Part shown: one piece after another, positions 4,336 through 48,086 of the stretch
Numbering within the stretch: position 1 is the first letter of the stretch
How the letters are laid out: every line of letters begins with the position of its first letter
Source: Terriglobia bacterium
GTDB taxonomy: Bacteria > Acidobacteriota > Terriglobia > 20CM-2-55-15
Assembly (NCBI GenBank): GCA_965218585.1
Contig: CBDCLE010000001.1
Span: 64,001 to 128,000, forward strand
Length of the DNA: 64,000 nt
Direction: 5' to 3'
Notes under the pieces: generated by a model
What the model saw: only the letters and a program-made list of their open reading frames with translations
Database searches by the model: none
What the model was told of the DNA's origin: nothing
Program-made: the position numbers and the translations under genes

Positions 4336-4346
4336 TGGATCGTCCC

Positions 4347-7490: not shown

Positions 7491-7545
7491 TATAACCGGG
7501 TCCGACACCTGTGTCCTATTTAAATAGGTGTCGGACCCGGTTATA
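7491..7545. repeat. perfect 20-bp inverted repeat (REP-like or bidirectional terminator)
   Basis: TATAACCGGGTCCGACACCT...AGGTGTCGGACCCGGTTATA between convergent genes. Confidence 0.8.
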
Positions 7546-7558
7546 GTTTTTCTTGTCG

Positions 7559-9196
7559 TTAGCTCGCCTGCTGGTATTCGATGTAGGATCTGCCCGGTTT
7601 TCCCCACAGCCATCCCTGGCCGTAACGCACACCATAATCCCGCAGGAGTGAGAGATCGTCTCTTGATTCGATCCCCTCGGCGACGATTTCCGCTCCCAGC
7701 GTCTTGGCAACCTCTACCAGTCTGGCGAGAAGACGTCCCTTGTTCGGGTCCCTCGAGGCACCGTCGACATAGGCACGGTCGATTTTGACGACGTCGGGTT
7801 CCAGCATGATCAGGGTTTCCAGGCAACTGCGGCCGAAACCGACATCGTCGATGGAGACTTCAATGCCTTTCTCTTTGAATGCTGCAACGTGTTCGCGCAG
7901 GCACGCGGGATCGCCGATGAATTGCTGCTCGCTGATTTCGATGCAGAAGGTCACACCCTCGTCCGTCGTGGCCAGCAGATCCATAAGCCGTTCGCTGGGA
8001 GTGCCAAGGATTGTCGAAGGGAACAGATTCACGTGTAACTTACCCCTGGGTGTGAGCCGCTTGCTCACGTCGACACATGCCTTGAGACATGAAAGATCGA
8101 CCGAGGCCAGCATGTTGGATTCGAGGGCGATCCGGAAGAAGTCGACAGGCATTTCCAGGGCACCGGCGGGGCCGCGGCTCAGGAGCTCGTGTCCAACGAC
8201 CTCTTCTCCCTGGAGCTCCAATATCGGCTGGGAGACCGCGTGGAAACTCCCCTCTTCAATAGCCGTCGTCAGGTCCAGAAGGCTCCCAACCGTGGGAGTG
8301 GCGATGGTCAGGGTCGGGGCTTGAACGTTGACTTCCTCTTCAGGTTCAGATTCTGTCTTGAGCGCGCTGTGGGCGAGTTCGAGAATCTCCTCTATCGAAC
8401 ACGTTTCCTTGGGAGCCTGTACGACTGCAATGCCCATGTTCACGCTCAGTGGATGTGGGGACAGGGCCAGTGGGGTGCTCCCCACAGCGTGCCGCAGTTT
8501 ATCGGCTACCTGCCGGCCTTCTGCCACGCGTGTATCGGGAAGGAACACGAGAAACTTGTCTCTAGAGATCCTTGCAATCTGGTCTGAGGGGCGCAGCGCA
8601 GTCTGCAATCGCTCTGCAATCGTCTTGAGCAGGACGTCGCCGACCGCATGGCCGAGGTTTTCGATGATTTCCTTCAGATCGTCACATGACAACATGACGG
8701 CAACGAGATTGGACCCGTATCTCCGGTCCCTTTCCAGTTCGTTCCACAGTGCGTTTTCGATTCCACGCCGATTGAGTGTTTCCGTCAATGGATCGGTGGT
8801 GGCCAGTCGCTGCAGCTGCTGATTGGCCTCTTCCAGAGCTGTGCTGAGGCCCTTCATGTTCGCCTCTGCCTCTGCCCGCTGGGTCATGTCCCTGAGCGAA
8901 GCCAGGAACGCAGGTTCGCCGCCCCAGCTGGCTCGTCCGACACGCATCTCAACCTGATGTGTCCCGATCGTCAGCTCTGTGCGGTCTGACGCCATAACAG
9001 GATAGCCGAATACGGTTCCCTTCAGTTCTTCGGCTGAACGGCCGAACATTGATGCAGCGGCTGGATTTGCAAATTGGATCTGGCCTGCGCTGTTGACGCC
9101 GCCGCCGCCATCCGGGCTGGCATCAGTGATCCCACGAAACTCGGATTTCTCCTCAGGTTTCGGGCCGAGGGAGTCTGATCTGAGGTTGTGCGCCAT
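7559..9196 (-). CDS. PAS-GGDEF(degenerate)-EAL c-di-GMP signalling protein
   Basis: PAS (FANPAAASMFG); TDPLT...NRR; GGDEF replaced by SRDKF; EAL domain with ELL, EISE, DDVGFG, KID and EGIE. Confidence 0.9.
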   Translation of the reverse strand: MAHNLRSDSLGPKPEEKSEFRGITDASPDGGGGVNSAGQIQFANPAAASMFGRSAEELKGTVFGYPVMASDRTELTIGTHQVEMRVGRASWGGEPAFLASLRDMTQRAEAEANMKGLSTALEEANQQLQRLATTDPLTETLNRRGIENALWNELERDRRYGSNLVAVMLSCDDLKEIIENLGHAVGDVLLKTIAERLQTALRPSDQIARISRDKFLVFLPDTRVAEGRQVADKLRHAVGSTPLALSPHPLSVNMGIAVVQAPKETCSIEEILELAHSALKTESEPEEEVNVQAPTLTIATPTVGSLLDLTTAIEEGSFHAVSQPILELQGEEVVGHELLSRGPAGALEMPVDFFRIALESNMLASVDLSCLKACVDVSKRLTPRGKLHVNLFPSTILGTPSERLMDLLATTDEGVTFCIEISEQQFIGDPACLREHVAAFKEKGIEVSIDDVGFGRSCLETLIMLEPDVVKIDRAYVDGASRDPNKGRLLARLVEVAKTLGAEIVAEGIESRDDLSLLRDYGVRYGQGWLWGKPGRSYIEYQQAS

Positions 9197-29614: not shown

Positions 29615-30328
29615 TCAGCCGCAGGTCGCTGCCGCGTCTTCGAGGTTTTCGAACAGACGCCCGGACCCTTCTCCCGCCAGGCTGTCGAGGCCGTGGCCCA
29701 TTCCTTCTTCCACTTCAAAACGCGTGGGGTAACCTCGCGACCGGAATGCTGCGGCCAGACGTTCCATCCCATTCGCCCATCCGGGATCGAATTCACCGAC
29801 GTGCAGGTAGATGCACATGCCGCTGAGCGCCTCCACACGCTCGGTTGTGGCCTCGTTCAGAAAGCCCGGGAATCCTGTGACCGAACAAAAATACTGGGGG
29901 TGCGAGGCCGCGATGTGGAATGCGCTCAGACCTCCGTTTGATCTTCCTGCAATGTGAAACTTATTGCCTTCGATGTTGTATTCCTGAAGCAGTCGTCTGG
30001 CGAAGGAAGGAAATATGAGCGCACCGGCCTGAAAGAAGAGTTGACCTCGGGGCGCTGCGGGACTGATCACGATGTAGCCCCGCCGTTCGGCTTCCCCGAC
30101 CCAGTGATTCTCCAGCGTTCGCCGGGTGATATCGCGGGTCTGGCCGCCGCCGCCGAAAGCGAGGACAGCGGGATATTCCGTCTCGGGGTCATATCCGTCG
30201 GGAAGGACGACGAAATATTCCACCCGCATTCCACCGAACGTGCCGACCCGTTCGACGACCTCTGCGTTAGCGTCTTCACCACCCAGAACAATTACAAGAA
30301 GCAGAGCTGTCAAGAGTCTTTCAGTCAT
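29615..30328 (-). CDS. exported alpha/beta hydrolase (esterase-like)
   Basis: Signal peptide; GRSNGG nucleophile elbow; GEFD and GMGH. Confidence 0.8.
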   Translation of the reverse strand: MTERLLTALLLVIVLGGEDANAEVVERVGTFGGMRVEYFVVLPDGYDPETEYPAVLAFGGGGQTRDITRRTLENHWVGEAERRGYIVISPAAPRGQLFFQAGALIFPSFARRLLQEYNIEGNKFHIAGRSNGGLSAFHIAASHPQYFCSVTGFPGFLNEATTERVEALSGMCIYLHVGEFDPGWANGMERLAAAFRSRGYPTRFEVEEGMGHGLDSLAGEGSGRLFENLEDAAATCG

Positions 30329-30419
30329 GTTGTTTACCAGGAGCTGTTTAGAATCGTTGATGAGTCGTTTTGGGGAGGATAACATGTCCTCATACGTCGG
30401 GCTCCAGCCTTATCAGTCA

Positions 30420-32344
<1,925 letters not shown>

Positions 32345-32375
32345 TTTGGAGCCCGCATCCGATTTTTCCTGACAC

Positions 32376-33033
32376 ATGCCATCCAACGGAATCCCGCCAC
32401 AATCCAGGGTCCGCGATATCTGGGACCGGCGGTACGTCCGGAAAGAGACCTTCGAACCCGATAGCTGGCTGAGACGCAGGGAGACGCTGCTTGGGAACAT
32501 CAAAGGAAGTCGGCCCTCGACGTGGGTTGTGGCGGTGGCTGGGACAGTCAGTTCTTGAGGAATTCGGAGTTTGATGTTGTCTCTCTGGATTTCTCGATCC
32601 GAGCGCTCAGACAAGCGAGGGAATCCGGCCTCAACCCGGGGCGGCTGGTTCAGGCGGATATAACCGAGGGGGTCCCCCTCCGGTCGCGCTCGTTTGGTTT
32701 GATCGTCGCGAACTTGGTCCTTCACTACTTCAGATGGGACACAACAATGAGGATCATGGACGAACTGGCTAGATGCCTGAAGACCGGTGGGAAGATCCTC
32801 GTCCGTGTGAATTCGACCGAAGATATCGAGTTTGGTGCAACAGGTAATCCCGAAATCGACCCGGGCCTCTACCTCGTCGCAGGCGTGGCCAAGCGTTTCT
32901 TTGACCGCGAGTCGGTGAGTCGCCTGTTCGATGACAAATGGAATGTTCTGGATGTCTGTGAAAGGACTTCCGAGAGAGGTTCGCGAACGAAACGGTTATG
33001 GGAAGTCTTGGCCGAACGGCGCATTTCCGAGGG
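32376..33033 (+). pseudogene. class I SAM-dependent methyltransferase; frameshift near 32510; IS256 inserted just before the stop
   Basis: LDVGCGGG, LDFS and ANLVLHYF motifs; native stop at 34422-34424 beyond the IS. Confidence 0.8.
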
Positions 33034-34412
33034 GAGGTCATTACAAAAGGTGTGTAAAAGTCATCAGGCGGCGGCCTTCGATTTCATCACGACTCTGATG
33101 CCGTCAGCGAATTGCTGACCATCATAGACCTCTTGTAAGAGTTCGGATCCTTTTAAGTGTCGCCAATTAAGTGTCGCCAAGCCTTCTCAGCGACACGTAG
33201 TAGCTTCCAGATCATTGCCGTTGCATTCTCGACACGCTTGAATCGGCGAGCGGCGTTGGTACGGAGGCGAACCATGTCGAAGGGCGATTCGACGATGTTG
33301 GTCGTTCTCAGATGCACCCAGTGTTGTTTCGGGAACTCATAGAAAGTAATCATCCGGTCCCAGTCCCGCAACAGCGTCTCACCCGCTTTGGGATAGTTCT
33401 TCTCATATCGGCGGACGAACTGATCCCGCTTTCGTTCGCAGGCCGCGCGGGAGTTCGCGAAGGCCATCCCATGAAGCAGCTGTCTGGCCGCGGGCTGCTC
33501 GGTCTTCGGCAGATGATCGACCACGTTGATCGACTTGTGGTTCCAGCAGCGTTGTTCCTGGCCCTGGGGCTGTTGCTCGGCCAGCGCGGACCAGATGCCC
33601 AGGTGACCGTCCGCGACAGTCAGCCGTCCCAGCTTCAGGCCCCGTCTCTGGAGATTGCGCAGAATGCGGCTCCAGGACTCCTTGCTTTCCCGCTGCCCGC
33701 TCTCACAGGCCAACAGCACTTTGCGCCCGTCTGACAAGGCTCCGATGATCACCAGCAATGCCGCTCGCTCTTTCGCGATCCCCGCTTTCACGTACAAGCC
33801 GTCTGCCCACTGGTACACGACCTCGAGGCCGGACAGGTCCTGCTGGACCCACTCGTCATACTCCAACTGCCAGGTCGATTTCAGTCGTTGGATCGATGCT
33901 CGCGACAACGGAGCGCCAGCGCCAAGCAGTCCGCGCATGGCCTGCTCGAAGTCCCCTGTGGCCAGACCGTGGAGGTAGAGATCGGGAAGTAGCTCGCCCA
34001 GCTGTTTCGATTTCCGTCGAAAATACGGCAGGATCTGACTCTCGAACCGCTCGGCGGTGTTTCGAACCCGAGGTCGTCGAACCTCCATCGTACCGTTCAT
34101 CATTGCGAAGCGTCGCGGCTTCCCGTGACCGTTCCGGTATCCTCGTCGATTCGGACTCCGCTCCAACTTTTCCCGACCCAGAAATTGAGTGACTTCGTCC
34201 TCGAGCAGCTCCTGTAGCCAGACTTGGACCCGGGATCGCGCCCAGTCCTCCAAACCTTCATACGCGTTCGTTGACGCCACTGATGCCGGTATGTTCTTCT
34301 TCTTCATGGGTGGTGTACCTTTCTCCCGATTGCTGCCGGGATTGCTTACGGTTTCGAATTCACCGAAAGCGTACACCGCCTTCTCTTTTTACACACCGAT
34401 TGGAACGACCTC
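33034..34412 (-). mobile_element. IS256 family element (type B), copy 1
   Basis: Ends GAGGTC / GACCTC; 8-bp TSD TCCGAGGG; transposase 33153-34376 cut short by a 14-bp tandem duplication. Confidence 0.93.
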
Positions 34413-34515
34413 TCCGAGGGTTGACCCAGCCCTAGGTTGACGCTTCAATTTGCTTACAACTTCAATCTGTAGTTAGATCACCGAGATTCTGCCGCCGCTG
34501 CCTAAGGAGTGCAAC

Positions 34516-34977
34516 ATGTCAGATGTTTCTGTTCCCGATCATCTCCCGGACTGGATAAAAGACCACCTCCGTCGATACCTTGAGAGCGATGGGGCCGACG
34601 GGTACTTCTGGGACTCTTCGGTTGCGGGTGGTCCCGGACCTCTTGCGACGCTTCTGTTGACGACTACGGGCCGGAAATCCGGGCAGCCCCGTATTCTTCC
34701 CTTACTCTTCGGGGAAGCTGATGGTAACTACGCGATCGTAGCGTCGAAGGGTGGAGCTCCGTCGCATCCGGGCTGGTATCTGAACCTTGCGGCCGAACCG
34801 GATGTCGAAGTACAGATCAAAGAGAAGCGGTTCCGGGCAAAGGCCCGGACGTCGACTGGAGAAGAGCGATCGAAGCTCTGGAACCAGATGGTTGGCATCT
34901 ATCCTCCGTATGCGGACTATCAGAAGAAGACCGATCGCGAGATTCCTGTCGTTGTTCTGGAGCCGGCCGAAGATTGA
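34516..34977 (+). CDS. deazaflavin (F420)-dependent nitroreductase family oxidoreductase
   Basis: LLLTTTGRKSG, ASKGG...HPGWYLNL and YQKKTDREIPVV motifs. Confidence 0.92.
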   Translation: MSDVSVPDHLPDWIKDHLRRYLESDGADGYFWDSSVAGGPGPLATLLLTTTGRKSGQPRILPLLFGEADGNYAIVASKGGAPSHPGWYLNLAAEPDVEVQIKEKRFRAKARTSTGEERSKLWNQMVGIYPPYADYQKKTDREIPVVVLEPAED

Positions 34978-35243
34978 GCTGTCGCCTCCGCTGGTCACCC
35001 ACTTCTTCTTCGTCCTCGCTTGGGGCTGAAAAACTCTGACCAGCCGCCATCTCCAATGAGTTGCGCCTTCGCATCCGATCGACTATCCTCAGACGTGTCC
35101 TGCCTTCTTTCAACTTCCGTCAGTTCTCGAGTACAGACGTCTACGCTACTTCGCTAGGCGACTGTTTCCCTGGTAGGCTAACTGAGACGGGACTCACTAG
35201 AGGTTGTTTCCTGTTCCCGCCTCTTTCAATGAGGTTCAAATAA

Positions 35244-36263
35244 ATGAAAATCCGAGTGTTTGATAACGACATCGAACTGCCGGACTTCGAACCGCCAAGG
35301 TTCAGATCCGGCCCGGTTCTGATGATCGTCGCGGTCATTTTCGGGCTGGCAATGCTCTGGGGGACGTTGTACCAGATCGCGCCGGAAGAGGCGGGCGTGG
35401 TGCTCCGTCTCGGGCGCTACGATCGGACGACGGATCCCGGTCTCCGCTTCAAGATCCCCCTTGTCGAACAAGTTCAGAAAGTGCCGGTCGAACGGCAGCT
35501 CAAGCAGGAGTTCGGCTTCCGGACCGTCACCGCTGGAGTTCAGAGTAATTTCACCACCGCGGGCCTGGACGATGAGTCGCTGATGTTGACCGGCGACCTG
35601 AACGTAGCCGTCGTGGAGTGGATCGTCCAGTATCGTGTGGCCGACGCCTACAACTACCTCTTCAAGGTACGGAATGTCGAAGACACATTCCGTGACATGA
35701 ACGAAGCCGTAATGCGAGAAGTCGTGGGTGATCGCACGGTGACCGAGGTGCTCACGATTGGAAGGCAGGATATCGAGGTCACTGCGCAGATCAGGCTTCA
35801 GGAGCTGTGCGATCGGTATGAGAACGGGATCCGTATCGAGCAGGTTGTGCTGCAAGACGTCAACCCACCGGACCCGGTTAAGCCTTCCTGGGACGAAGTG
35901 AACCAGGCCCAGCAGCAACGAGACAGGCTGATCAACGAAGCGCTGACCGATTACAACAGCGTCATTCCCAGGGCCCGAGGCGAAGCCGAACAGGTGATTC
36001 TTCAGGCGGAAGGATACGCCGTGAACCGGGTCAATCGAGCAGAGGGCGACGCGGCCCGCTTTGTGTCCGTTTATGACGAGTATCGCCAGGCTCCTGACGT
36101 GACTCGCCAACGGATGTACCTGGAGACCATGTCGACGATGATGGCCCGCGTTCCGGGAAAGGTGATTCTGGATAGCAACGCGCAGGGCATCCTTCCGTTG
36201 CTCCCCCTCGATGGCATTGGCAACCGACTGACAGGCTCCGCTGCGGGCCAAGGAGGCAACTGA
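35244..36263 (+). CDS. hflK: FtsH modulator HflK
   Basis: SPFH domain; MLTGDLN, PRARGEA and TRQRMYLETM motifs. Confidence 0.92.
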   Translation: MKIRVFDNDIELPDFEPPRFRSGPVLMIVAVIFGLAMLWGTLYQIAPEEAGVVLRLGRYDRTTDPGLRFKIPLVEQVQKVPVERQLKQEFGFRTVTAGVQSNFTTAGLDDESLMLTGDLNVAVVEWIVQYRVADAYNYLFKVRNVEDTFRDMNEAVMREVVGDRTVTEVLTIGRQDIEVTAQIRLQELCDRYENGIRIEQVVLQDVNPPDPVKPSWDEVNQAQQQRDRLINEALTDYNSVIPRARGEAEQVILQAEGYAVNRVNRAEGDAARFVSVYDEYRQAPDVTRQRMYLETMSTMMARVPGKVILDSNAQGILPLLPLDGIGNRLTGSAAGQGGN

Positions 36264-37201
36264 TGTTAGGCATGGCCAAAGTTCCACTTTTGATTTCGGC
36301 CGGTATTGTTGTACTGATTCTCCTGGTCAACGGACTCTACATTGTTGACGAAACCGAACAGGTGATCGTCACCCAATTCGGGCAACCCGTCGGTGACGCT
36401 GTCACGACGCCCGGACTGAAGGTCAAGATACCGTTGATCCAGGTGGCCAACTACTTCGACAAGCGCTTTCTGGAGTGGGACGGTGATCCGAATCAGGTGC
36501 CGACACGCGACAAACGGTTCGTCTGGGTGGATGCATATGCACGCTGGCGGATCAGTAACCCACTGACGTACCTGGAAAGACTCCGCGGGGATGAGAACAC
36601 GGCCCAGTCGCGTCTGGACGACATTCTGGATGGGGAAACCCGCAACGCTATTGCACGGAATGATCTGCTCCAGGTCGTTCGGACCGTGAACCGTCAACCC
36701 GACACCGTCGAAGGCGATCAGGAGGAAACCGGAGTCCTGGACCCGATCGAAACCGGGAGGTCCGACATCACGGCGGATATCCGGGAGACGGCTGCGCCAC
36801 GACTGGAGGAGCTGGGAATCGAACTCGTCGACTTTCAGCTCAAGCGGATCAACTATGTCGCAGAAGTGCAGCAGGATGTGTTCGCGCGAATGATCGCCGA
36901 ACGGCAGCGAATCGCGCAGCAGTACCGTTCAGAAGGTGAAGGAGAGGCGGCCCGCATCAGGGGCGAGAGGGAGCGCGACCTTCAGGCTATCCAGTCGGAA
37001 GCCTATCGGCAGGCCCAGGAAACTCAGGGCGTGGCCGACGGCGAAGCCACACGCATTTACGCTGATGCCTACACTCGCGACGGTTCTTTCTATGCGTTCA
37101 TGAAGAGCATGGAGACGTTCGAGACGGCGATCGATCCCAATACGCTTTTGGTTCTGACCACAGACGGGGAGTTGTTTCAGTATCTCAACGAACCTCAATA
37201 A
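36263..37201 (+). CDS. hflC: FtsH modulator HflC
   Basis: QVIVTQFG, PGLKVKIP, RMIAER...RSEGEGEA; coupled to hflK. Confidence 0.92.
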   Translation: MLGMAKVPLLISAGIVVLILLVNGLYIVDETEQVIVTQFGQPVGDAVTTPGLKVKIPLIQVANYFDKRFLEWDGDPNQVPTRDKRFVWVDAYARWRISNPLTYLERLRGDENTAQSRLDDILDGETRNAIARNDLLQVVRTVNRQPDTVEGDQEETGVLDPIETGRSDITADIRETAAPRLEELGIELVDFQLKRINYVAEVQQDVFARMIAERQRIAQQYRSEGEGEAARIRGERERDLQAIQSEAYRQAQETQGVADGEATRIYADAYTRDGSFYAFMKSMETFETAIDPNTLLVLTTDGELFQYLNEPQ

Positions 37202-37431
37202 CGGTCGGTAGGGGGTCGTATATAGATCAGCAATGGGCGAAGAGATCGATGTGACGGTAACGCCGGTTGTCGGGAGTTTAGACTTTGATTACGTCTAGTT
37301 CCCTGTGGCAGTACTCCGAGGAGATGTATGGGTTCGCTGCGTGCCGACCCGATGTCGAAGGGGTCTCACTCCTGAATCGGAGGGGGTGATACAATGACGT
37401 AAAACGTGTAACAACCTATTAGGAGGCAGAT

Positions 37432-38283
37432 ATGCTGAGACCAAGAGCTATTTGCGGCGGATTCGTCACTCTCCTTTTCGTTTTGGCAACGATTCCGGTT
37501 GCCGAGGGCCAGGAAGCATTGGTCGCTCCAGCGGAATGGACGGATGCCGAAAAGGAAAGTTTCCTTCAGAATGCTGAACTCCTCTCGATCGAAGACATCG
37601 GCATCGGATCCACTGACGCTCAACGCACGACCCTGAGCGACGGCAGCTTCACGCATGACGCTCAGATCCAGGCTGTCGATATATTTCGGCGCGGCATAAC
37701 GCAACTGGATGGCGCAGTCGAGGTCAATTTCAGGGACAGTTACAAGTTCAACATTGCAGGATACCGTCTGGACCGATTGCTCGGCCTCAACATGGTTCCG
37801 GTATCCGTAGAGCGAAGAGTGCGACGCGAACCAGCGGCTGTGACATGGTGGGTGGACGACGTTCAGATGATGGAGCTGGACCGTTTGAACAACGGGATCG
37901 AACCTCCCGATGTCGAGGCGTGGAACGATCAGATGAGCACGTGTCGGATTTTCACCGAGCTGATTTACAACACCGACGCCAACCTCGGAAACTTCCTGAT
38001 CACCAGCGACTGGCAACTCCACCTCATCGACTTCACGCGCGCATTCCGGCTGTTCGATAGCCTTCGAGAGCCCGAAAACGTCACGCCACGCATCGAACGA
38101 CACTTCTACGAAGGTCTTCAGGGGCTGGATAAGGAGCGCCTCGAGGAGGTTATGGAGGGACTGCTGGGCGGCAGCGAGATCGACGGCATTCTCTCTCGGC
38201 GGGATGTCATTCTGGAGATTCTGGACACGCACATCGCTGAGAAAGGCGAGGCCGCGGTCGTTTACGACGTGGCCGGGCAGTGA
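37432..38283 (+). CDS. exported atypical kinase-fold protein (PI3/4K-, Fam20-, HipA-like)
   Basis: AGGAGG RBS; signal peptide; IGIGST, AGYRLDRLLGLNMVP, NTDANLGN and LIDF motifs. Confidence 0.7.
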   Translation: MLRPRAICGGFVTLLFVLATIPVAEGQEALVAPAEWTDAEKESFLQNAELLSIEDIGIGSTDAQRTTLSDGSFTHDAQIQAVDIFRRGITQLDGAVEVNFRDSYKFNIAGYRLDRLLGLNMVPVSVERRVRREPAAVTWWVDDVQMMELDRLNNGIEPPDVEAWNDQMSTCRIFTELIYNTDANLGNFLITSDWQLHLIDFTRAFRLFDSLREPENVTPRIERHFYEGLQGLDKERLEEVMEGLLGGSEIDGILSRRDVILEILDTHIAEKGEAAVVYDVAGQ

Positions 38284-38304
38284 GGTGGTTTGACGGAGCC
38301 ACAC

Positions 38305-39579
38305 ATGCGCCGCGCTAAGCCGGGTCTCGAAATCGGAACGTTGCTTCTGGCGACCACCCTCACGCTGGTTCCGCTATCCCTGGTTTGGAGCCAGGACACC
38401 GACCGAATTCTTGTGATGGCTGACATCCACGGTGACTTTGCGGCGGCAACCGCCATGCTCGAGCGGACGGGCATCGTGGATGACGAACTCGGTTGGATGG
38501 GCAGCGACGCGACGTTCGTGCAAACGGGAGACTCTACCGATCGAGGGCCTGAAGTCCGGCGCGTGCTGGATCTTCTGATGTCGCTGGACCGGGACGCCCC
38601 TGACGACCAGGTGGTTGTCCTCCTGGGCAATCACGAGCATTCAAACATCATTGGGAACCTGGTCGACGTGACGGGGGCCGACTATGAGAGTTTTGCCGAT
38701 TCGGAGTCCGAGAGTCGCCGGCAGGAGGCTTTCCTGGAATTCGTCGATTACCAGGAGCGACGCGCTGAAAGGCTCGGGAGCGAGCCCATGGCCCCAACAG
38801 CAGAATCCGAGCAAGCCTGGATGGACGCACATCCTCTAGGTTTCATAGAACACCGGGAAGCGTTTGGTCCCGACGGCGAATATGGTCGGTGGCTTCGCGA
38901 CCGACCCACGGTGGCAAAGCTGGGCGAAACGCTATTCCTCCACGCAGGAATCTCTCCCGCGCTCGCCGAGCTTTCGATCGATGAGATCAATGCCCGAGTT
39001 CGTGACGAGATTCGTGCCTTCGATCAGTCTTTCCAGTATCTGGTCTCCAGGGGGATGGCACTGCCTTTTTTCACTCTTCAGGAACTACTCGAGGCAGCGC
39101 GCGAGGCGCTTGAGGTCCTGAACGGGACGACCGATCCGGAAAAACGCGATTCAGAAGAGCAACGCGACGTTCAAGTCATGGGGGGTCTGTTAAGTCTCGG
39201 AGGCTGGTTGACGATTCACCCTGAAGGCGTTCTCTGGTACAGGGGATACAACAACTGGTCCGACGAGGAGGGAGCAGTCCAGATCGAACAGTTGCTCGAA
39301 CGCTACGACGTCGAACACATCGTTGTCGGCCACACACCCCAGCTTCCGGCCCAGATTCGAGTCCGTTTCGGTGGAAGCCTCTACCTGGCAGATACGGGGA
39401 TGCTTTCGAGCTACTACCGGGGAGGGCGCGCCTCGATGTTGGAGATCCGGGGTGACGTCTTTCGTGCCATCTACCTGGATGAAGGTGCGCGGCTAATCGA
39501 GCCACCTCGAGTGGGCAGTGTACCTATCCCGTTTGGGCCAGCCGCTCGCTCTCCACTCACATCGATCCCGGCACCCTAA
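38305..39579 (+). CDS. exported calcineurin-like metallophosphoesterase (Shewanella-like PPP phosphatase)
   Basis: Signal peptide; DIHG, GDSTDRG, GNHE, HAG, VGHT and DTG motifs. Confidence 0.88.
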   Translation: MRRAKPGLEIGTLLLATTLTLVPLSLVWSQDTDRILVMADIHGDFAAATAMLERTGIVDDELGWMGSDATFVQTGDSTDRGPEVRRVLDLLMSLDRDAPDDQVVVLLGNHEHSNIIGNLVDVTGADYESFADSESESRRQEAFLEFVDYQERRAERLGSEPMAPTAESEQAWMDAHPLGFIEHREAFGPDGEYGRWLRDRPTVAKLGETLFLHAGISPALAELSIDEINARVRDEIRAFDQSFQYLVSRGMALPFFTLQELLEAAREALEVLNGTTDPEKRDSEEQRDVQVMGGLLSLGGWLTIHPEGVLWYRGYNNWSDEEGAVQIEQLLERYDVEHIVVGHTPQLPAQIRVRFGGSLYLADTGMLSSYYRGGRASMLEIRGDVFRAIYLDEGARLIEPPRVGSVPIPFGPAARSPLTSIPAP

Positions 39580-39588
39580 CCCCCATCC

Positions 39589-42342
39589 ATGTCCCACTGG
39601 ATCGAGCGTCTCCTGAATCTGCGGCGGGGAGAACTTCCTGGCGGACTCCTGTTCTTCGCGTACTACTTTCTGATCATATCGTCCTATGTCGTCGGCCAGG
39701 TCGCCCGTGACGCCCTGTTTCTCGATCGCTTCGCGGCCGATCAGTTGCCATACGTCGACGTGGCGATAGCTGCGACTGTAGGTCTGGTCGTGGCGGCCTA
39801 TATCCGGGCTGGGCGCTGGGTCAAACTGCGGGAGTTGCTGACGGGAGCGTTAGGCCTTTTCGCGGCCATGGCCCTGTTTTTCTGGTGGGGGGTTCGGACC
39901 GTTCAATGGGCCTGGCTGTTCCCGGCTCTCTATATCTGGATCGGAATCTTTGGTGTTCTGGCAATCGCTCAGGTCTGGACCCTGGCGAATTTCATGCTGA
40001 CAACTCGCGAAGCCAAAAGGGTGTTTGGACTTGTCGGCGCCGGCGGAATCCTGGGCGGCATCTTTGGGGGATTCCTCTCCGTTGGAATAGCGCGCAACCT
40101 CGGCACCGAGAGTCTCTTGCTTGTGGTCGCAACGTTCCCTGCAATCTGCATGATGCTCGTGAGGTGGATCTGGCGGCGAGAGGGCAAGGAGGCTGGCTTT
40201 GGAGTCGAGCACAAGGCAACAGGTCTGGAGAGTTCCTGGAGTCTTTCAGGGACTCTTCAAATCATCCGTTCTTCTGCCCAGCTGAAATCCATAGCAATGC
40301 TCATCTGCATCACCTCGATCGTTACCACCGCGGCGGGCTGGCAGTTCAAGGCGATTGCTAAGGAAACCATCATCGAAACCGACGCGCTGGCTGCATTTCT
40401 GGGTTCTTTTCAAGGCTAACGCGGGGATTCTGTCGCTCGTGGCACAACTCCTATTGACAACCAGGGTGCTGCAACGATTCGGTGTGGGTTCTGCTCTGTT
40501 TATCCTTCCTGTCGCTCTGGTTCTGGGTAGTGCGGGTGTTCTCGTCTTCGGGGGCGTAGCGGCCGTGGTTGCGTTCAAGGGGAGCGATAAGGTCTTGCGC
40601 TATTCGATCGACACCTCGGCACTTCAGCTGCTCTACCTGCCAGTGCCGACCGGTATCAAGGTCCAGGTCAAATCTTTCATCGATACAGTCGTCTTGCGCC
40701 TTGGTGACGGTCTGGCAGGAGTTACGTTGCTGGTCTTCGTGACATATCTTCAGTTCACTCCCCGACAAGTGGCCTGGATCAATCTCATTGGTCTCGTGGC
40801 CTGGCTTTTCGTTGCGAACCGTGCGCGGCGACAGTACCTTGCGACTCTCGGCGAACGCGTTCAGGAACACCGGATCGACATCGAGCGCACGTCGGTTCCG
40901 GTTCTTGATCGATCCACAACTTCTATTCTGGCCACCAAACTCGATTCCGGCGATTCCCAGGAGATCCTTTACGGACTCCGCCTGTTCGAGCTCGGCGATC
41001 ACCGCACCGCTCATCCTTCGATCCAGGGCCGCATACGGCACGATTCTCCGGAGGTCCGGGCCAAGGCCGTGGCGATTCTAAACACCACGGGCAACCTGGC
41101 GGTGAACGATGAGATCGAAGAACTGCTCAACGATGGTGATCTGGGTGTGCGCACGGAAGCTCTGTTGTACTTGACGCAGCATACCGACATCGACCCCCTG
41201 GCTCGGATCCGCGAGTTGGGAGACTTTCCGGATTTCACGATTCGGTCGGCGATCGTGGCTTTCCTGAGTCAACCTGGAAACGCCCAGAACCTGGCGGTCG
41301 CAGAACTCATGCTGGACATGATGTTGGACGAGACAGGGCCAGCTGGACGGCTTACCCGGCTGGAGGCTGGACGGCTGATTGGACTCCTACCCGATGCCTT
41401 CGAAAACCAGGTGTCGAGGCTTCTGGCAGATCCCGATCCGGAAATTGCCCGCTATGGAATATCCGCGGCCGGAAACCTCCGTCGGCCGAAGTTCGTCTCT
41501 GCATTGCTGGACCGGCTGGGCGATCCCAACAATGTTCAGGAAGCGGCAACCGCGCTTGGAAACTTCGGAGATCGGATCGTAGGTACGCTGGGCGACTACG
41601 TGAAAGATCCCGAAGTTTCTATTGCCGTTCGCCTTGAAATTCCAGCAGTGCTTGCCAAAATCGGCGCACCCGGCGTTCAGGAGTCATTGGCCGAGTGCCT
41701 TCTGGAGGGAAACACGACGCTTCGCCACCGGATCCTTTCAGCAATGAACAAGTACCAGCAATCGAACCCGCAGGTCAGCATCGATCCGCAATGGATCGAA
41801 ACAGTTCTGGCCGCCAAAATCCTGGGGCATTACCGTTCCTACCAGGCTCTGGACTTACTTGGCGGCGCGTTGGAGGGGAGCGACCCATCGCTGGCAGCGC
41901 TCACCGAATCCATGGGTCATGAACGGGAGCGGATTTTCCGTCTGCTGGCAATTTTTTTCCGGAACACGACATGCACGCGGCCTACCTGGCACTCGATTCG
42001 ACGAACTCTCGAATGCGCGACAACACGCTGGAGTTCCTCGACAACATGCTACGCCCTGAACTGCGCTCTCTGCTTATCCCGCTCGTCGACGATGGTGTAA
42101 CCGTCCAAGATCGGGTTCGACTCGCCAATGATGTCGTGGGCACGGGTGTGGAAACATCGGAGGAAGCTGTCGCGATGTTGATGCACACTGGCGATCCCTG
42201 GTTGAAATCATGTGCTGCCTACGCCATCGGTGCACTGGGGCTGAAGTCGCTCGAAAGCGAAATGGACACTTGGCAAGACGACCAGGATCCGCTCCTGGCG
42301 GAAGCCGTCCGACAGGCAAAACTGCGGCTGGCCAAGATCTAA
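39589..42342 (+). CDS. Npt1/Npt2 (TLC/NTT) nucleotide transporter-like MFS domain fused to HEAT repeats; frameshifts near 40410 and 41955
   Basis: RDALFL, QVWTLAN...REAKRVFG, LRYSID...LLYLP...KSFID and GDG motifs; about 500-aa HEAT-like C-terminus. Confidence 0.82.
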
Positions 42343-42354
42343 GGACGTACGCTT

Positions 42355-42747
42355 ATGGACCGGGAGAACTTTTCCAGTGGAACGCCATGGGAACACCTGG
42401 CCAGCTATTCGCGTGCGGTTCGAGTGGGCAATCAGGTCTGGGTATCGGGTACAACGGCAACCGACGAGAAGGGTGAGATCGTCGGGACTGGCGACGCCTA
42501 CGCTCAGACTATCCAGGCGCTGAAGAACATCGAATCTGGCCTGGGACAGGCTGGCGCGAGTCTCCGTGATGTGGTTCGCACGAGAATGTATGTCGTGAAT
42601 ATCAAGTCGGATTGGGAGAAGGTGGCCCAGGCTCACAAGGAAGTGTTCAGAGAGATCAGGCCGACAACAGCCATGGTCGAGGTTAGTGGTTTGATCGATC
42701 CGTCCATGCTCGTTGAGATCGAGGTGGACGCTGTCATTGTTGACTGA
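42355..42747 (+). CDS. RidA/YjgF family protein
   Basis: [14 protein letters not shown] and LVEIEVDA motifs. Confidence 0.9.
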
Positions 42748-43036
42748 AGGCGTGCGGTTAAGCCGGCTCTTCCCCCTGCGCTACGACCGCGGTCCAGGAG
42801 TGATCTCTGCAGGTGAAGCTGTCGGCTAAGACGAACGCAGCGAAGCTAACCCAAGGGGTGTGACGCTGCTCGCGTCTGCACGCGTCGCATGGGAGGAAAC
42901 CACCGCACATGGTGCAGACGAGCATATTACCCATACCGGCAGCAGCGGCGGCTGTGGGGCGAACAGGGGTTCATGCTTGGCTTAGAGAAGCTGTTCTGCA
43001 CCAAGGCAAAACAGGAGAAAATACAATGAAAACATC

Positions 43037-45347
43037 ATGCGCATCGTAGTCCTTGTTGTGGCATCAAGTAGCATTGTTCTAGCCCGCATATTTCACCGAT
43101 AGGACCAGAAAAGGCCGCCCTGTCTGGCATAAAGCGTTTTGAAATAAACGTTTAACAAGCCAAACGGAGACGGCCCTTATGAGAACAGAGTGTAACCAAA
43201 CGACGTTCGAATTTCACGGACTTCTTCAACGAAAAGTGAAGGCGCGTTTTGACGGCGGAAAGATCATCTCCGACGCTGGGGTTCTGCTGTTGAGGGAAGT
43301 GGAAAAGCGAACGGGTCTGATCGCCGGACTGGCCGAGTGTTTCAGGGATTACCGGGACGCGAGGTTGATCGAACACACGGTGAGCGAGTTATTGGGGCAG
43401 CGCGTCTACGGACTCTGTCTGGGCTACGAGGATCTGAACGATCATGACCAACTGCGGACCGATCCGATGCTGGCCGTGGCGGTGGATAAGGCCGATCCAC
43501 TGGGGGAGAAGCGGCGGCAGGCCCGAGACCGGGGAAAAGCGTTGGCGGGCAAGTGTACGCTGAACCGGTTGGAACTGACCGGGGAGCAAGTCGATGGGAA
43601 GGAGCGGTACAAGAAGATTGCCATGGACCCGGACAAGATCGACCGCTGGATGGTGGATGCATTTGTGGCGGCTCACGGATCGGCGCCCGAGGAGATTGTT
43701 CTGGACCTGGATGCGACCGATGATCCGATCCATGGCCATCAGGAAGGACGGTTCTTTCACGGCTACTATGGCAACTACTGTTATCTGCCGCTCTACATCT
43801 TTTCGGGAGAGCATCTGCTATGCGCCCGGTTGCGGTGCTCCAATGTCGACGGTGCGGACGGCGCCGTCGAGGAATTGAACCGCATCATCGGCCAGATCCG
43901 GCAGAGCTGGCCGGAGGTGTCGATTATCATCCGGGCCGACTCGGGCTTTTGCCGGGATGAATTGCTGAGTTGGTGCGAGGCCCACCAGGTCGATTACGTG
44001 GTGGGTCTGGCCAAGAACGATCGGCTCAAGCGCGAGATCGCTGAATCGATGAGTCAGGCCGAAGCCGAGTTTAACGACACCGGGAAACCGGCGCGGGTGT
44101 TTAACGATTTCCGGTATCGCACTCGGAAGAGCTGGACCTGCACCCGACGCGTCATCGGCAAGGCCGAGTTCCTGGAGAAAGGCGCCAATCCTCGATTCGT
44201 TGTGACCTCACTGTCGCCGGAACGCCTGGACGCCCGCGCCCTCTATGAAGACTTTTACTGTGCGCGGGGCGACATGGAAAATCGCATCAAGGAACAGCAG
44301 TTGGATCTATTCGCCGACCGGACCAGCGCGGCAACCATGCGCGCCAATCAACTCCGGCTCTATCTGTCCTCGGCCGCCTACATGCTCCTGCACGCGTTAC
44401 GCCGTCTGGGACTGAAGAATACCGATCTGGCCCGCGCTCAGTGCCAGACGATCCGCTTGAAGCTCCTCAAGATCGGAGCTCAAGTCCGTCTGACGGTTCG
44501 CAACATCTGGATCTCCATGTCGGAAGCCTATCCCTACGCCGAGGTCTTTGCCCTCGTCCATCGAAACCTGCAGGCGCTTCCTCTGCGCTGCTGAGAACCG
44601 ACCCGATCCCCTGCGCCAAAATCGACTCGCTCTTTTCGGCTCCGCCGAGGTTTGTCTCAGTGCGTTTCGTCACCCTCTTCTGAACCCGAAAACGCAGCAA
44701 CTCCCGCTTGTCGACACCGCCGAGTCACGCCACACATGCCCAATTCGAACCCAGATCCTCCCGAATCCGATTCTTACTGCCCAAATCCCCCTGATCGCCG
44801 GACTGGTGAAACATGCGGGCTAGGCGTTCACCCCACGATGGCCCAGGACTGGGGGCAAGACCGATCCATCGATCAGCTATCAGAAAGCGTATATCGCTGG
44901 GGTTCTCGCGGCGAGAATAGTGCGTTCATCGTGACGTCCGAGGGGATTATCGTCATCGACGGTAGTCCGTGCGCGTCGGGGGACACCGAATGGATCAAGG
45001 GCGAGCTCGACCAGCGATACGATGTTCCTGTCAAACTCGTCGTACTAAGCCATGACCATGCGAGTCACATCTGTGGGACGGAAATATTCAGTGACACAGC
45101 CATGACGATAAGCCACCGCCAAACTTCGGCCGCATATTCTCAGAGAGAGTCGCGCTTCAGCCGTGCCGAATATCACGTTTGAAGATTCCATGGACATTCA
45201 TCTGGGTGGGCTCAAGGTGGTCTTGATCTATAACGGCCCGACTCATAGCGATAACCTGATCCAGGTTCATATTCCGGAGGAGGGAGTCCTTATTGCGGTG
45301 GACCTGTCGCGTGCTGGAAGGAGTCTGGTATTTCCGGATTTTCGTGA
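43037..45347 (+). pseudogene. exported MBL-fold hydrolase split by IS1380 and truncated by IS256
   Basis: MRIVVLVVASSSIVL|GVHPTMAQDW rejoins across CTAG; SHDHASH and PTHSDN motifs. Confidence 0.8.
43083..44819 (+). mobile_element. IS1380 family element; transposase 43179-44594
   Basis: IRs CCCGCATATTTCACC / GGTGAAACATGCGGG; TSD CTAG; LDLDATDD, RADSGF and RGDMENRIKE motifs. Confidence 0.95.
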
Positions 45348-46713
45348 GAGGTCATTACAAAAGGTGTGTAAAAGTCATCAGGCGGCGGCCTTCGATTTCA
45401 TCACGACTCTGATGCCGTCAGCGAATTGCTGGCCATCATAGACCTCTTGTAAGAGTTCGGATCCTTTTAAGTGTCGCCAAGCCTTCTCAGCGACACGTAG
45501 TAGCTTCCAGATCATTGCCGTTGCATTCTCGACACGCTTGAATCGGCGAGCGGCGTTGGTGCGGAGGCGAACCATGTCGAAGGGCGATTCGACGATGTTG
45601 GTCGTTCTAAGATGCACCCAGTGTTGTTTCGGGAACTCATAGAAAGTAATCATCCGGTCCCAGTCCCGCAAACAGCGTCTCACCCGCTTTGGGATAGTTC
45701 TTCTCATATCGGCGGACGAACTGATCCCGCTTTCGTTCGCAGGCCGCGCGGGAGTTCGCGAAGGCCATCCCATGAAGCAGCTGTCTGGCCGCGGGCTGCT
45801 CGGTCTTCGGCAGATGATCGACCACGTTGATCGACTTGTGGTTCCAGCAGCGTTGTTCCTGGCCCTGGGGCTGTTGCTCGGCCAGCGCGGACCAGATGCC
45901 CAGGTGACCGTCCGCGACAGTCAGTCGTCCCAGCTTCAGGCCCCGTCTCTGGAGATTGCGCAGAATGCGGCTCCAGGACTCCTTGCTTTCCCGCTGCCCG
46001 CTCTCACAGGCCAACAGCACTTTGCGCCCGTCTGACAAGGCTCCGATGATCACCAGCAATGCCGCTCGCTCTTTCGCGATCCCCGCTTTCACGTACAAGC
46101 CGTCTGCCCACTGGTACACGACCTCGAGGCCGGACAGGTCCTGCTGGACCCACTCGTCATACTCCAACTGCCAGGTCGATTTCAGTCGTTGGATCGATGC
46201 TCGCGACAACGGAGCGCCAGCGCCAAGCAGTCCGCGCATGGCCTGCTCGAAGTCCCCTGTGGCCAGACCGTGGAGGTAGAGATCGGGAAGTAGCTCGCCC
46301 AGCTGTTTCGATTTCCGTCGAAAATACGGCAGGATCTGACTCTCGAACCGCTCGGCGGTGTTTCGAACCCGAGGTCGTCGAACCTCCATCGTACCGTTCA
46401 TCATTGCGAAGCGTCGCGGCTTCCCGTGACCGTTCCGGTATCCTCGTCGATTCGGACTCCGCTCCGACTTTTCCCGACCCAGAAATTGAGTGACTTCGTC
46501 CTCGAGCAGCTCCTGTAGCCAGACTTGGACCCGGGATCGCGCCCAGTCCTCCAAACCTTCATACGCGTTCGTTGACGCCACTGATGCCGGTATGTTCTTC
46601 TTCTTCATGGGTGGTGTACCTTTCTCCCGGTTGCTGCCGGGATTGCTTAGGGTTTCGGATTCACCGAAAGCGTACACCGCCTTCTCTTTTTACACACCGA
46701 TTGGAACGACCTC
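45348..46713 (-). mobile_element. IS256 family element (type B), copy 2; frameshift near 45670; no TSD
   Basis: Near-identical to 33034-34412; flanks TTTCGTGA and TCCTTCTC differ. Confidence 0.92.
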
Positions 46714-46767
46714 TCCTTCTCGGTAGTCCTATACTTGAGGTTGGTTGTAAAGGAGACGTAGACGCCA

Positions 46768-47289
46768 ATGTCGAGATTCACAGAACGCATGATTCGCGCT
46801 GCGAAGTTAGATGTGAACCTTTATGAAGAGGTGGAAGCCGATAAGACGGCCATGGGCCAGGCGATGGGCGTGGTGGTGTTGTCCTCTCTTGCCGCCGGCA
46901 TCGGCAGTATATCCATGGGTGGCAGAAATTTAATTCTCGTGACCATTGCCGCTTTAGTGGGATGGTATATCTGGGCGTATCTCACTTATTTTATCGGCAC
47001 CAAATTTCTGCCCGAAACGCAAACAAAGGCCGATCACGGAGAACTGTTAAGAACGATCGGATTTTCTAGCTCGCCGGGGCTGATACGGATTTTGGGAATC
47101 ATTCCAGGGTTCACCAACTTAGTCTTCTCGGTGGCCGGAATCTGGATGCTCATTGCGATGGTCATTGCGGTGCGTCAGGCATTGGACTATACAAGCACCC
47201 TGCGAGCGGTGGGTGTGTGCTTGATCGGCTGGATCATTCAGAGCATCTTTGTAGGGCTCTTATTGTTGTTTGCGCAGGGTGGCGCTTGA
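46768..47289 (+). CDS. YIP1 family membrane protein
   Basis: AGGAG RBS; YEEVEAD, ELLRTIGFSSSPG and AVRQALDY motifs; about 5 TM. Confidence 0.85.
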   Translation: MSRFTERMIRAAKLDVNLYEEVEADKTAMGQAMGVVVLSSLAAGIGSISMGGRNLILVTIAALVGWYIWAYLTYFIGTKFLPETQTKADHGELLRTIGFSSSPGLIRILGIIPGFTNLVFSVAGIWMLIAMVIAVRQALDYTSTLRAVGVCLIGWIIQSIFVGLLLLFAQGGA

Positions 47290-47506
47290 AAAACCCGCTG
47301 ATACCTCCGTCTACGCTTCGAGCGCAACTTCACGATGCCGCCCGCAAGACTCAACGAGGCCAGAATGGATTCGCTACATTCTTTTCTGTACGGCTCTTTC
47401 ATCCCCTACAACGTGCTGGTTTATCCTGGCGCTTTCCCTGATAGATCATCTTCCCGGACGTTGAGAAATCCACCAGGGGGTTAAGTGGCCCCCTCAGGAG
47501 GTCGAG

Positions 47507-47668
47507 GTGAAAGCGAAAAAAGAGACGACCCCCGATGTTCGCGTCTGGTGTCAACACTGTCGCGTTCGAATCTCACCCAATGAAGACCAGGTTGCTGCCG
47601 GTGACAAGGTCTACCATAGGCAGTGCTTTCCCAAGCGGCCCTCCGTCAAGAGAGCTAAGAAGAAGTAG
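47507..47668 (+). CDS. 53-aa basic zinc-finger microprotein (CxxC-x18-HxxC), absent from the ORF track
   Basis: AGGAGG upstream; MKAKKETTPDVRVWCQHCRVRISPNEDQVAAGDKVYHRQCFPKRPSVKRAKKK*. Confidence 0.7.
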   Translation: MKAKKETTPDVRVWCQHCRVRISPNEDQVAAGDKVYHRQCFPKRPSVKRAKKK

Positions 47669-47825
47669 CCGCTGTTTCTGAATGAGTGCCCACCGCAAGT
47701 GAGCCACCATCCATTAGCGAATCTGGAACGAAAGCGAGGTCAAGCCCTGAATTTCAGCGAACGAAAACCCTCCTCTCGCCTGCCGTACCCCGATTGGCCA
47801 CCAATGGGATGTATCTACCATTGTT

Positions 47826-48086
47826 TCAATGGATTACTGTGACAATCGAAGCTCTCAGCGGTTCAGCCAACACGTAGTCCGTCTCGCTACCCTTCCTGCC
47901 CGTAACAGCATCCAGTAGCCAACACAGCGGCATGTCGGCTTCGTCCGTGCAGTGTTCACAGCCGAGGATCTGACTCTGTACTTGAAGGGCTGCGGTTCGG
48001 CTGACGGCAACGAGGGTTTTGATTGTTCTTGCGCCCAAACTTCCATAGCATTGGCGATGCACTCACGAAATCAACAAAGCAACCTC
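47826..48086 (-). pseudogene. remnant of a small CxxC protein abutting IS21
   Basis: GCEHCTDEADMPLCWLLDAVTG...TDYVL; no clear start. Confidence 0.4.

Follow-up and report, generated by a model that had tools for sequence, protein, structure and literature searches.

A candidate three-part module for phosphoryl transfer outside the cytoplasm of Acidobacteriota, combining a Fam20-like kinase-fold protein, a Shewanella-like phosphatase and an NTT-HEAT carrier

According to the textbook view, the bacterial periplasm has neither ATP nor kinase-based regulation. In the eukaryotic endoplasmic reticulum and Golgi, ATP/ADP exchange by SLC35B1/AXER reportedly supplies phosphorylation. The Fam20 kinases, which act outside the cytosol, include in animals the protein kinase Fam20C, the xylose kinase Fam20B and the pseudokinase Fam20A, in which Gln stands in place of Glu (PMC5413348), and a study of their evolution covers animal genomes only (PMC5865150). 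Nucleotide transporters (NTTs) fused to HEAT repeats (NTT-HEAT) or to HEAT repeats and a cyclic nucleotide-binding domain (NTT-HEAT-cNBD), often followed by a cyclic nucleotide monophosphate (cNMP)-binding gene, have been described as widespread and uncharacterised (Major, Embley and Williams 2017, PMC5381601); no characterised NTT-HEAT member, and no characterisation after 2017, was found in the literature searched. The locus considered here, which brings relatives of these proteins together, lies in a 64,000-nucleotide stretch of contig CBDCLE010000001.1 of a soil-type Terriglobia bacterium (positions 64,001 to 128,000, forward strand; hereafter the window). The map of open reading frames (ORFs) of the window has three co-oriented genes on the + strand, here termed genes 1 to 3, encoding respectively a Fam20-like kinase-fold protein, a Shewanella-like phosphatase (SLP) and an NTT-HEAT carrier. 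That the three form a functional unit is very likely; that they make up a conserved module whose three parts serve phosphoryl transfer beyond the cytoplasm is a reading to which we give slightly less than even weight. This reading is partly supported: there is support for export, fold, conserved catalytic residues and linkage, while kinase activity, ATP as donor, ATP transport and its direction, the substrate, and the location and regulation of the carrier's tail are inferred.

The closest described relatives of gene 1 by structure are the Fam20 kinases. An AlphaFold2 model made from 28 aligned relatives (mean predicted local distance difference test score, pLDDT, 84.4; predicted template modelling score 0.81) retrieves from the PDB with Foldseek, as leading matches, Fam20C (5yh0, top, E 1.4e-9), Fam20A, Hydra Fam20 and the C. 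elegans Golgi casein kinase (E 1.4e-9 to 3e-6), followed by PI4K type II and HipA. VIA-align, by which the model was aligned independently against 48,161 chains, ranks Hydra Fam20 first (Z 19.7, 243 aligned residues, root mean square deviation 3.5), then DrFam20C1 (Z 19.6) and ceFam20 (Z 18.4), these best matches spanning 237-243 residues; lower are PI4KIIalpha (Z 16.5), CtkA (14.8), actin-fragmin kinase (11.7), HipA (11.1), CotH (10.9) and MavQ (10.3). Fam20A, B and C are also the only sequences found among 177,635 PDB sequences by a profile of the gene 1 family (best E 1.6e-4), and the two families share a block before and in helix C, F-x-D...N..IAA[YF]xLDR[LI]L, together with the last helix. 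The kinase fold that a first-pass annotation of the window had proposed from motifs alone thus stands, with Fam20C/B/A nearest and PI4K, HipA and CotH lower, and the modelling supports a Fam20-type fold for gene 1. A putative catalytic-loop Asp/Asn and a putative DFG-like Asp, assigned by motif and fold, would be further points of likeness, and each family has a subtype with an altered ion pair (Gln for Glu in Fam20A; PMC5413348). By contrast, identity to the matched Fam20 chains is 14-18%, gene 1 has 283 residues against 351-418 in those chains, both Lys and Glu are replaced rather than Glu alone, and gene 1 is bacterial, predicted to be exported by Sec or, in relatives, by the twin-arginine (Tat) route, and genetically tied to a phosphatase and a carrier. 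Gene 1 also falls below the Pfam Fam20C threshold: PF06702 gave no match in the gene 1 of the window, nor, at E <= 0.01, in any of the 28 aligned members, whereas the tandem relative P0121 passes it (29.4 bits; cut-off 26.8). The Pfam match of gene 1 itself is to ABC1 only, below threshold (18.4 bits; cut-off 22.9), and NCBIfam offered no usable name, the TIGR03843 match being rejected at 17.9 bits against a cut-off of 172.4. The family, unannotated, comprises 2122 representative clusters at E <= 0.001; the genome of the window holds a single copy. HipA is a cytoplasmic protein. CotH and HipA belong to the same broad group of atypical kinase folds, and Pfam HipA_2 matches gene 1 relatives below threshold, but their structural scores lie far below those of Fam20, and no report links either of them to a phosphatase fusion or to a carrier.

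Export was assessed from hydropathy, from twin-arginine motifs in relatives and from fusions. In gene 1, residues 7-18 form a hydrophobic 12-mer core that precedes AEG/Q, and a hydrophobic N terminus is present in 204 of 213 full-length single-domain relatives, 29 of which carry a twin-arginine motif, in some cases the classical RRxFL. The N terminus of gene 2 is likewise hydrophobic, as it is in 108 of the 111 gene 2 relatives that start with Met. Hydropathy is therefore in agreement with the first-pass annotation in giving both enzymes, and nearly all of their relatives, predicted export signals; Sec export of gene 1, and Tat export of some relatives, is supported at this level. A lipoprotein signal in gene 1 was considered and rejected (Cys8 has no preceding lipobox). 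In two relatives, P0128 and P0198, a Hanks-type Ser/Thr kinase domain is fused to a C-terminal gene 1-like domain of the same active-site subtype (Q-N, see below), in P0198 with a membrane helix between the two, a layout that, judged from its domains, would amount to a cytoplasmic kinase with a kinase-fold ectodomain.

The predicted active-site motifs of gene 1, IGIGST (residues 56-61), YRLDRLLGL (111-119), NTDANLGN (180-187) and IDF (199-201), together with Gln80 and Asn107, lie where the first-pass annotation had placed them. Asp182, Asn187 and Asp200, which are kept in 99, 98 and 99% of 270 relatives (R203, F205, R128, W140 and D102 in 98-100%), have a spacing that fits a catalytic loop and DFG motif, an assignment made by motif and fold and not by residue-level superposition. 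That Gln and Asn occupy the positions at which Lys and Glu are expected, as had also been proposed, is borne out by strict covariation of positions 80 and 107: the pair is Q-N in 217 members, K-E in 18, K-D in 11, R-E in 5 and K-N in none. The 34 members with Lys/Arg at 80 and Glu/Asp at 107 make up a sister clade, one tree branch (support 0.996) parting the Q-N from the K-E/D type with six of 240 tips misplaced. His75 is present in 98% of the Q-N type and is variable in the K-E type, while D182, N187 and D200 stand at 99-100% in both. The Fam20 pair, Lys271 in Fam20C and Glu213 in ceFam20, is thus absent from the gene 1 of the window, its equivalence to Gln80/Asn107 coming from covariation, not structural superposition; HMMER pairs Fam20A Gln258 with gene 1 Tyr104 rather than Asn107, an alignment that does not fix the equivalent of Fam20C Glu306. 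The pattern of conservation suggests that the Q-N type has remodelled its nucleotide-phosphate pocket without ceasing to be an enzyme, and gene 1 is, on balance, probably an active phosphotransferase.

The same residues invite a different reading, in which Q-N gene 1 is a non-catalytic, pseudokinase-like sensor of nucleotide or another ligand outside the cytoplasm, tuning the phosphatase or signalling via NTT-HEAT and cNMP-binding/STAS partners. Lys and Glu are indeed replaced by Gln and Asn, and Fam20A, which lacks only the Glu, binds ATP upside down and acts without catalysis (PMC5413348, PMC7948968); the domain forms the outer part of the receptor-type Ser/Thr kinases P0128 and P0198, and genes for histidine kinases, response regulators and cNMP-binding proteins surround the Bryobacterales loci. 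However, retention of D182, N187 and D200 throughout a deep, large clade of 217 Q-N members argues for catalysis, the single gene 1 copy in the genome leaves no active paralogue to regulate, and K-E members with the canonical pair occupy the same operon slot, so that a sensor appears unlikely. It may also be that gene 1 has a catalytic role other than that of an ATP-dependent protein kinase, using another donor, carrying out an AMPylation-like transfer, or phosphorylating glycans or lipids in the manner of Fam20B, PI4KII or MavQ, with the carrier supplying the co-substrate concerned. Hydra Fam20, the best structural match, bears the name glycosaminoglycan xylosylkinase in its deposition, PI4KIIalpha and MavQ, both lipid kinases, likewise lie near, the altered N-lobe, with its His75, would fit a changed donor, and kinase folds with different chemistry are cited in PMC7948968. 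This alternative departs from the proposed module in donor and substrate only, and a phosphatase as partner is easier to reconcile with a phosphate ester as product than with an AMP adduct; we consider it distinctly unlikely.

Gene 2 has a Pfam Metallophos match (E 1.7e-12), and its nearest relatives in the PDB are the Shewanella cold-active protein-tyrosine phosphatase structures 2zbm/1v73 and 2z72 (E 1e-24; for 2zbm_A, E 1.1e-24 over three aligned stretches), Arabidopsis RLPH2 (5vjv) matching at E 5e-7. An alignment of 26 relatives shows no variation in the motifs DIHG, GDSTDRG, GNHE, H218 and GH348 (D45, H47, G48; G80, D81, D84, R85, G86; G113, N114, H115, E116; H218; G347, H348), so the full PPP/Shewanella-like set reported by the first-pass annotation is present, and gene 2 is, as judged from its sequence, an exported Shewanella-like PPP phosphatase. 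It resembles the Shewanella enzyme and plant SLP/RLPH2 in sequence and in this motif set, but differs from the former in having some 90 residues inserted between its GNHE and HGG regions (query 124-188 versus chain 159-177), and from SLPs in being often fused to a kinase-fold domain. The database copy, P0391, has 424 residues and is 100% identical over 99% of the gene 2 query; a start at the ATG at 38305 would yield these 424 residues.

For a complex of genes 1 and 2 the prediction score is 0.47 (runs 0.01, 0.68 and 0.47; best control 0.00), with at least 92% of contacts agreeing between runs and partner pLDDT of at least 85. Among 80 solved complexes 58 reached the pass mark, as did two of 110 mismatched pairs, but passes at a score of 0.60 or below comprised only seven of the 80 solved complexes and both mismatched pairs, so the modelling lends weak support to a contact between the two proteins.

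Gene 3 is TLC/NTT-like with a HEAT-repeat tail, as had been recognised from the first reading: its first piece in the window matches Pfam TLC (24.8 bits; cut-off 21), its second HEAT_2 (E 8.8e-22), the intact orthologue at locus L001 reaches 56.8 bits for TLC, and over residues 108-442 the intact orthologue aligns with the plastid NTT1 structure 9j3j (E 3.6e-12). NCBIfam TIGR00769 gives 20.5 bits against a cut-off of 387.2. All 120 gene 3 relatives listed have the TLC plus HEAT architecture, with source names of the ATP:ADP antiporter or Npt1/Npt2 family. The protein is thus like the published NTT-HEAT fusions, both in its domains and in the cNMP-binding gene that follows its orthologues elsewhere; by contrast, no exported kinase or phosphatase partner is named in the available part of that account (PMC5381601), and the link to genes 1 and 2 is, within the literature searched, new. 

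Relatives of gene 3 are single ORFs of 918-919 residues, whereas in the window gene 3 occupies three frames (39589-40419, 40355-42100 and 41971-42342). The first break, caused by an extra A at 40418, is absent from record 3 of the X1 contigs (3414 nt; one mismatch and one gap over 39678-42400), the site being covered by no contig of run X2; a reading without the A gives, by eye, FQGYAGIL, as in L001, and this break is an assembly error or a variant. The second break is real in this strain because the window, X1 record 3 and X2 record 13, the last from a different study, agree in a T7 run (41952-41958) that is short by one base, the relatives in X3 and X5, about 93% identical, having one base more. 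The codons ATT TTT TTC (41951-41959) form an in-register T_TTT_TTC slippery heptamer, and translation from 41959 onwards yields PEHDMHAAYL, the very sequence found in L110 and L112, so a -1 slip, or an extra U in transcription, could restore the tail. The module may be impaired in this strain, or may rely on slippage at the T-run.

Among 41 related genomes gene 1 is found in 15, in 11 of which it adjoins NTT-HEAT. The order gene 1-gene 2-gene 3 is seen in G000 to G003, and again in G007, G017 and G023, in which gene 2 is 52-53% and gene 3 60-69% identical to that of the window and gene 1, at 37-38% identity, is of the K-E type; therefore, both subtypes occupy the same slot. In G037 a gene 2::gene 1 fusion precedes gene 3, in G020 and G012 gene 1 is followed directly by gene 3, in G039 a divergent pair is followed by a cNMP-binding gene, and in G019 the trio is probably split over two contigs. 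What is conserved is thus the trio as such, since its flanks vary among genomes. In a phylum-wide sample of 201 genomes, with NTT-HEAT called at E <= 1e-60, gene 1 is present in 48 and NTT-HEAT in 41 (G085 enters this latter tally only). A cross-reading of the two tables gives 33 genomes with both, 15 with gene 1 only, eight with the carrier only and 145 with neither, i.e. NTT-HEAT in 33 of 48 genomes with gene 1 versus eight of 153 without it. The two lie no more than 3 kb apart in 13 of 32 genomes with both (G000 left out), in 10 taxonomic families; stop-to-stop ORFs and hidden Markov models confirmed all 13 loci, and gene 2 is also present at 11. The forms at these loci are g3-cNBD-g2::g1, g3-g2::g1, g3-g1-g2, g2::g1-g3 and divergent (g1 to g3 being genes 1 to 3), and overall the arrangements of the trio, counted by gene order and fusion state, number at least six across about a dozen Acidobacteriota families.

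Genes 1 and 2 are also tied by fusion. Among the 120 gene 2 relatives listed, all 10 of at least 600 residues carry a gene 1 domain, nine in the order phosphatase-kinase, the tenth being a doubtful read-through at L001; a gene 2-like N-terminal part is present in nine of 15 gene 1 relatives of at least 400 residues (Pfam checked). The L001 (G002) ORF of 724 residues was rejected as a true gene 1/gene 2 fusion, since the gene 2 signal peptide lies in its middle. The co-occurrence of the three genes predicted by the first-pass annotation thus proved wide across Acidobacteriota, with genes 1 and 2 often fused. Chance adjacency, or synteny alone without common function, might be argued from the other neighbours of most gene 1 relatives: penicillin amidase is the commonest operon partner in a sample of 79 loci (six loci), followed by the beta-lactamase family (three loci) and many singletons. 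Such a reading is contradicted by the six or more arrangements in which the trio recurs amid differing flanks, by the frequent fusions and by the genome-level counts given above, and it is extremely improbable.

Other features of the family's neighbourhoods bear mention in their own right. The six loci with a penicillin-amidase-family gene directly beside a gene 1 relative (L057, L050, L058, L067, L070 and L045; one scanned at E 1.4e-181) are of Vicinamibacterales type. At L139 (G083:C23:40000-50000, 3365-8881) five gene 1 paralogues in tandem, each 273-275 residues long, come after one SLP phosphatase gene, an array divergent from an NTT-HEAT gene and a STAS-domain gene, and G127 has 11 gene 1 matches genome-wide; the family grows by tandem duplication. 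At L128 and L129, in G013 and G021, NTT-HEAT is divergent to a Ser/Thr kinase with PD40 beta-propeller repeats, beside a Na/Ca-exchanger gene.

The way in which the parts might act together resembles that of SLC35B1/AXER in principle only, i.e. a kinase in an ATP-free compartment served by an ATP/ADP exchanger, although the carrier families are unrelated and the compartment here would be the periplasm. On the mechanism considered likeliest, gene 3, as an inner-membrane carrier, would swap cytoplasmic ATP for periplasmic ADP; gene 1 would use this ATP to phosphorylate a periplasmic or envelope substrate, possibly a protein or a glycan; and gene 2, working with gene 1 and often within one polypeptide, would strip the phosphate. 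Such a kinase-phosphatase cycle would yield ADP and Pi from ATP, so that an ATP/ADP counter-exchanger is the kind of carrier that it would need. NTTs can accept Pi as a third substrate. The HEAT tail, taken as cytoplasmic, could with cNMP-binding or STAS neighbours, which lack export signals, gate the supply from the cytoplasm. Supply of nucleotide by the carrier is possible, if somewhat short of probable. The fuller proposal, that Acidobacteriota and their kin have ATP-fuelled reversible periplasmic phosphorylation in which NTT-HEAT exports ATP against ADP, gated via its HEAT tail by cNMP-binding/STAS partners, Fam20 homologues write and SLP phosphatases erase, is put forward tentatively.

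The direction of transport is where an alternative based on salvage enters, in which the phosphatase and a nucleotide-binding gene 1 would process extracellular nucleotides or phosphoesters, and NTT-HEAT would import the products, with no phosphorylation of the envelope. A purple-acid-phosphatase-type Metallophos gene, a type typical of phosphate scavenging, lies one to three genes from gene 1 at L041, L046 and L064, gene 2 has weak NCBIfam matches to the diadenosine tetraphosphate (Ap4A) hydrolases ApaH (E 1.5e-5) and PrpE (E 9e-4), far below cut-offs, and characterised NTTs import nucleotides (PMC1951785, PMC5381601). Salvage does not, however, require a strictly conserved kinase catalytic triad, the phosphatase would destroy nucleotides meant for import, the solved structures closest to gene 2 carry the name of protein phosphatases, and neither Pho-type regulation nor a phosphate transporter was found beside the trio (window ORFs, Pfam). 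Salvage is fairly unlikely.

Against the proposed module stand several further observations. Periplasmic ATP could leak through porins, and in this strain gene 3 has a real frameshift near its 3' end. The gene 1 of the window is without the canonical Lys-Glu pair, and Fam20A is a pseudokinase precedent for a missing Glu (PMC5413348). Reconstituted chlamydial PamNTT1 prefers ATP import versus ADP export, in strict counter-exchange (PMC1951785). The distribution of NTT-HEAT, which extends to cyanobacteria and chlamydiae (PMC5381601), is far wider than that of gene 1, so its general role cannot depend on gene 1. In G013 and G021 the orthologous carrier is unlinked from gene 1; neither partner lies within 8 kb at 65 of the 79 gene 1-relative loci; NTT-HEAT is not seen, at the threshold used, in 15 of the 48 genomes with gene 1; and the two are unlinked in 19 of the 32 genomes with both. 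The linkage tallies throughout are descriptive and not tests, and they exaggerate the support because related genomes lack independence.

At the locus itself (Table 1), the first-pass annotation had given three co-oriented genes with gaps of about 9-21 nt; the co-orientation holds, genes 1 and 2 being separated by 6 or 21 nt, depending on the start used, and genes 2 and 3 by 9 nt. A consensus scan found one promoter-like site, inside gene 3, and two terminator-like sites, and the operon is inferred from spacing alone because both counts fall below the shuffle means. The spacer 5' of gene 1 contained no sigma-70-like site, terminator or Rfam match, and no riboswitch or leader was found near the trio (Rfam, E <= 0.1, window 30000-48000). 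Across this spacer lie hflK/hflC (Band_7, Pfam), and a RidA/L-PSP-family gene begins 12 nt after gene 3, as if co-transcribed; both ridA and HflK/HflC are absent beside the trio in those loci of relatives that were examined, no fourth conserved gene of the module was found in relatives' loci, and the genes that recur as neighbours in genus g4 (ADH, esterase, aminotransferase) seem to reflect no more than synteny.

Table 1. Positions in the window of the three genes, their parts and neighbouring features.
Feature	Position	Strand	Description
Gene 1	37432-38283	+	283 aa; exported Fam20-like kinase-fold protein, Q-N subtype (H75, Q80, N107)
Gene 1 predicted signal peptide	37432-37509	+	residues 1-26; cleavage guessed after AEG
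Gene 2	38290-39579	+	429 aa from TTG 38290; exported SLP PPP-family metallophosphatase
Gene 3	39589-42342	+	NTT-HEAT carrier; TLC/NTT membrane domain and HEAT-repeat tail, three frames
Gene 3 first break	40417-40419	+	extra A at 40418 giving a TAA stop
Gene 3 second break	41952-41960	+	T7 run then CC, one base fewer than relatives' frame
Spacer 5' of gene 1	37202-37431	+	230 nt, by ORF map; likely promoter region
RidA/L-PSP-family gene	42355-42747		
IS256-type element, first copy	33034-34376		Mutator family
IS256-type element, second copy	45348-46677		Mutator family; transposase split, 346 aa and 131 aa
DDE_Tnp_1_4 transposase gene	43179-44594		intact, 471 aa, E 6.5e-157
Metallo-beta-lactamase-fold gene	44652-45441		truncated
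ALIL pseudoknot (RF01497)	31305-31421	-	full length, 100.6 bits, E 2e-25
Group II intron domains D1-D4-6 (RF02005)	47255-47399	-	48 bits (gathering score 49), E 4.9e-11

A transposase element of the Mutator family (IS256 type) is present twice in direct orientation. Its copies, separated by some 12.3 kb and 99-100% identical over the stretches reported, enclose hflKC, the trio, ridA and another insertion sequence, a pair that looks like a composite-transposon layout, which may explain flanks unlike those of relatives. The DDE_Tnp_1_4 transposase gene lies between ridA and the truncated metallo-beta-lactamase-fold gene, whose 3' end runs into the IS256-type repeat. Upstream of the trio region Rfam places an ALIL pseudoknot, the frameshift signal of IS3-family elements, and downstream it matches group II intron domains slightly below the gathering score.

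Each part of the locus comes from a known superfamily, and the NTT-HEAT architecture is published. The first-pass annotation had stated that no such bacterial system was known, and of this claim one part holds, in that no account of the system was found in the literature searched, whereas the NTT-HEAT fusions themselves had been described, as uncharacterised, in 2017 (PMC5381601). Nor was any paper found there on a bacterial Fam20-like exported kinase or on an NTT-HEAT partner. New, within that literature, are a large bacterial family of Fam20-like proteins with predicted export, and its link both to an SLP phosphatase and to NTT-HEAT. The split between the Q-N and K-E/D types offers a natural comparison for kinase folds without the canonical Lys-Glu pair, and the linkage would provide a first functional context both for NTT-HEAT carriers and for the large unannotated gene 1 family. 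With this module, phosphorylation beyond the bacterial cytoplasm has a concrete candidate that can be tested; if the proposal is true, the periplasm would not be ATP-free, and the secretory-pathway kinases of animals would have bacterial relatives with the same job.

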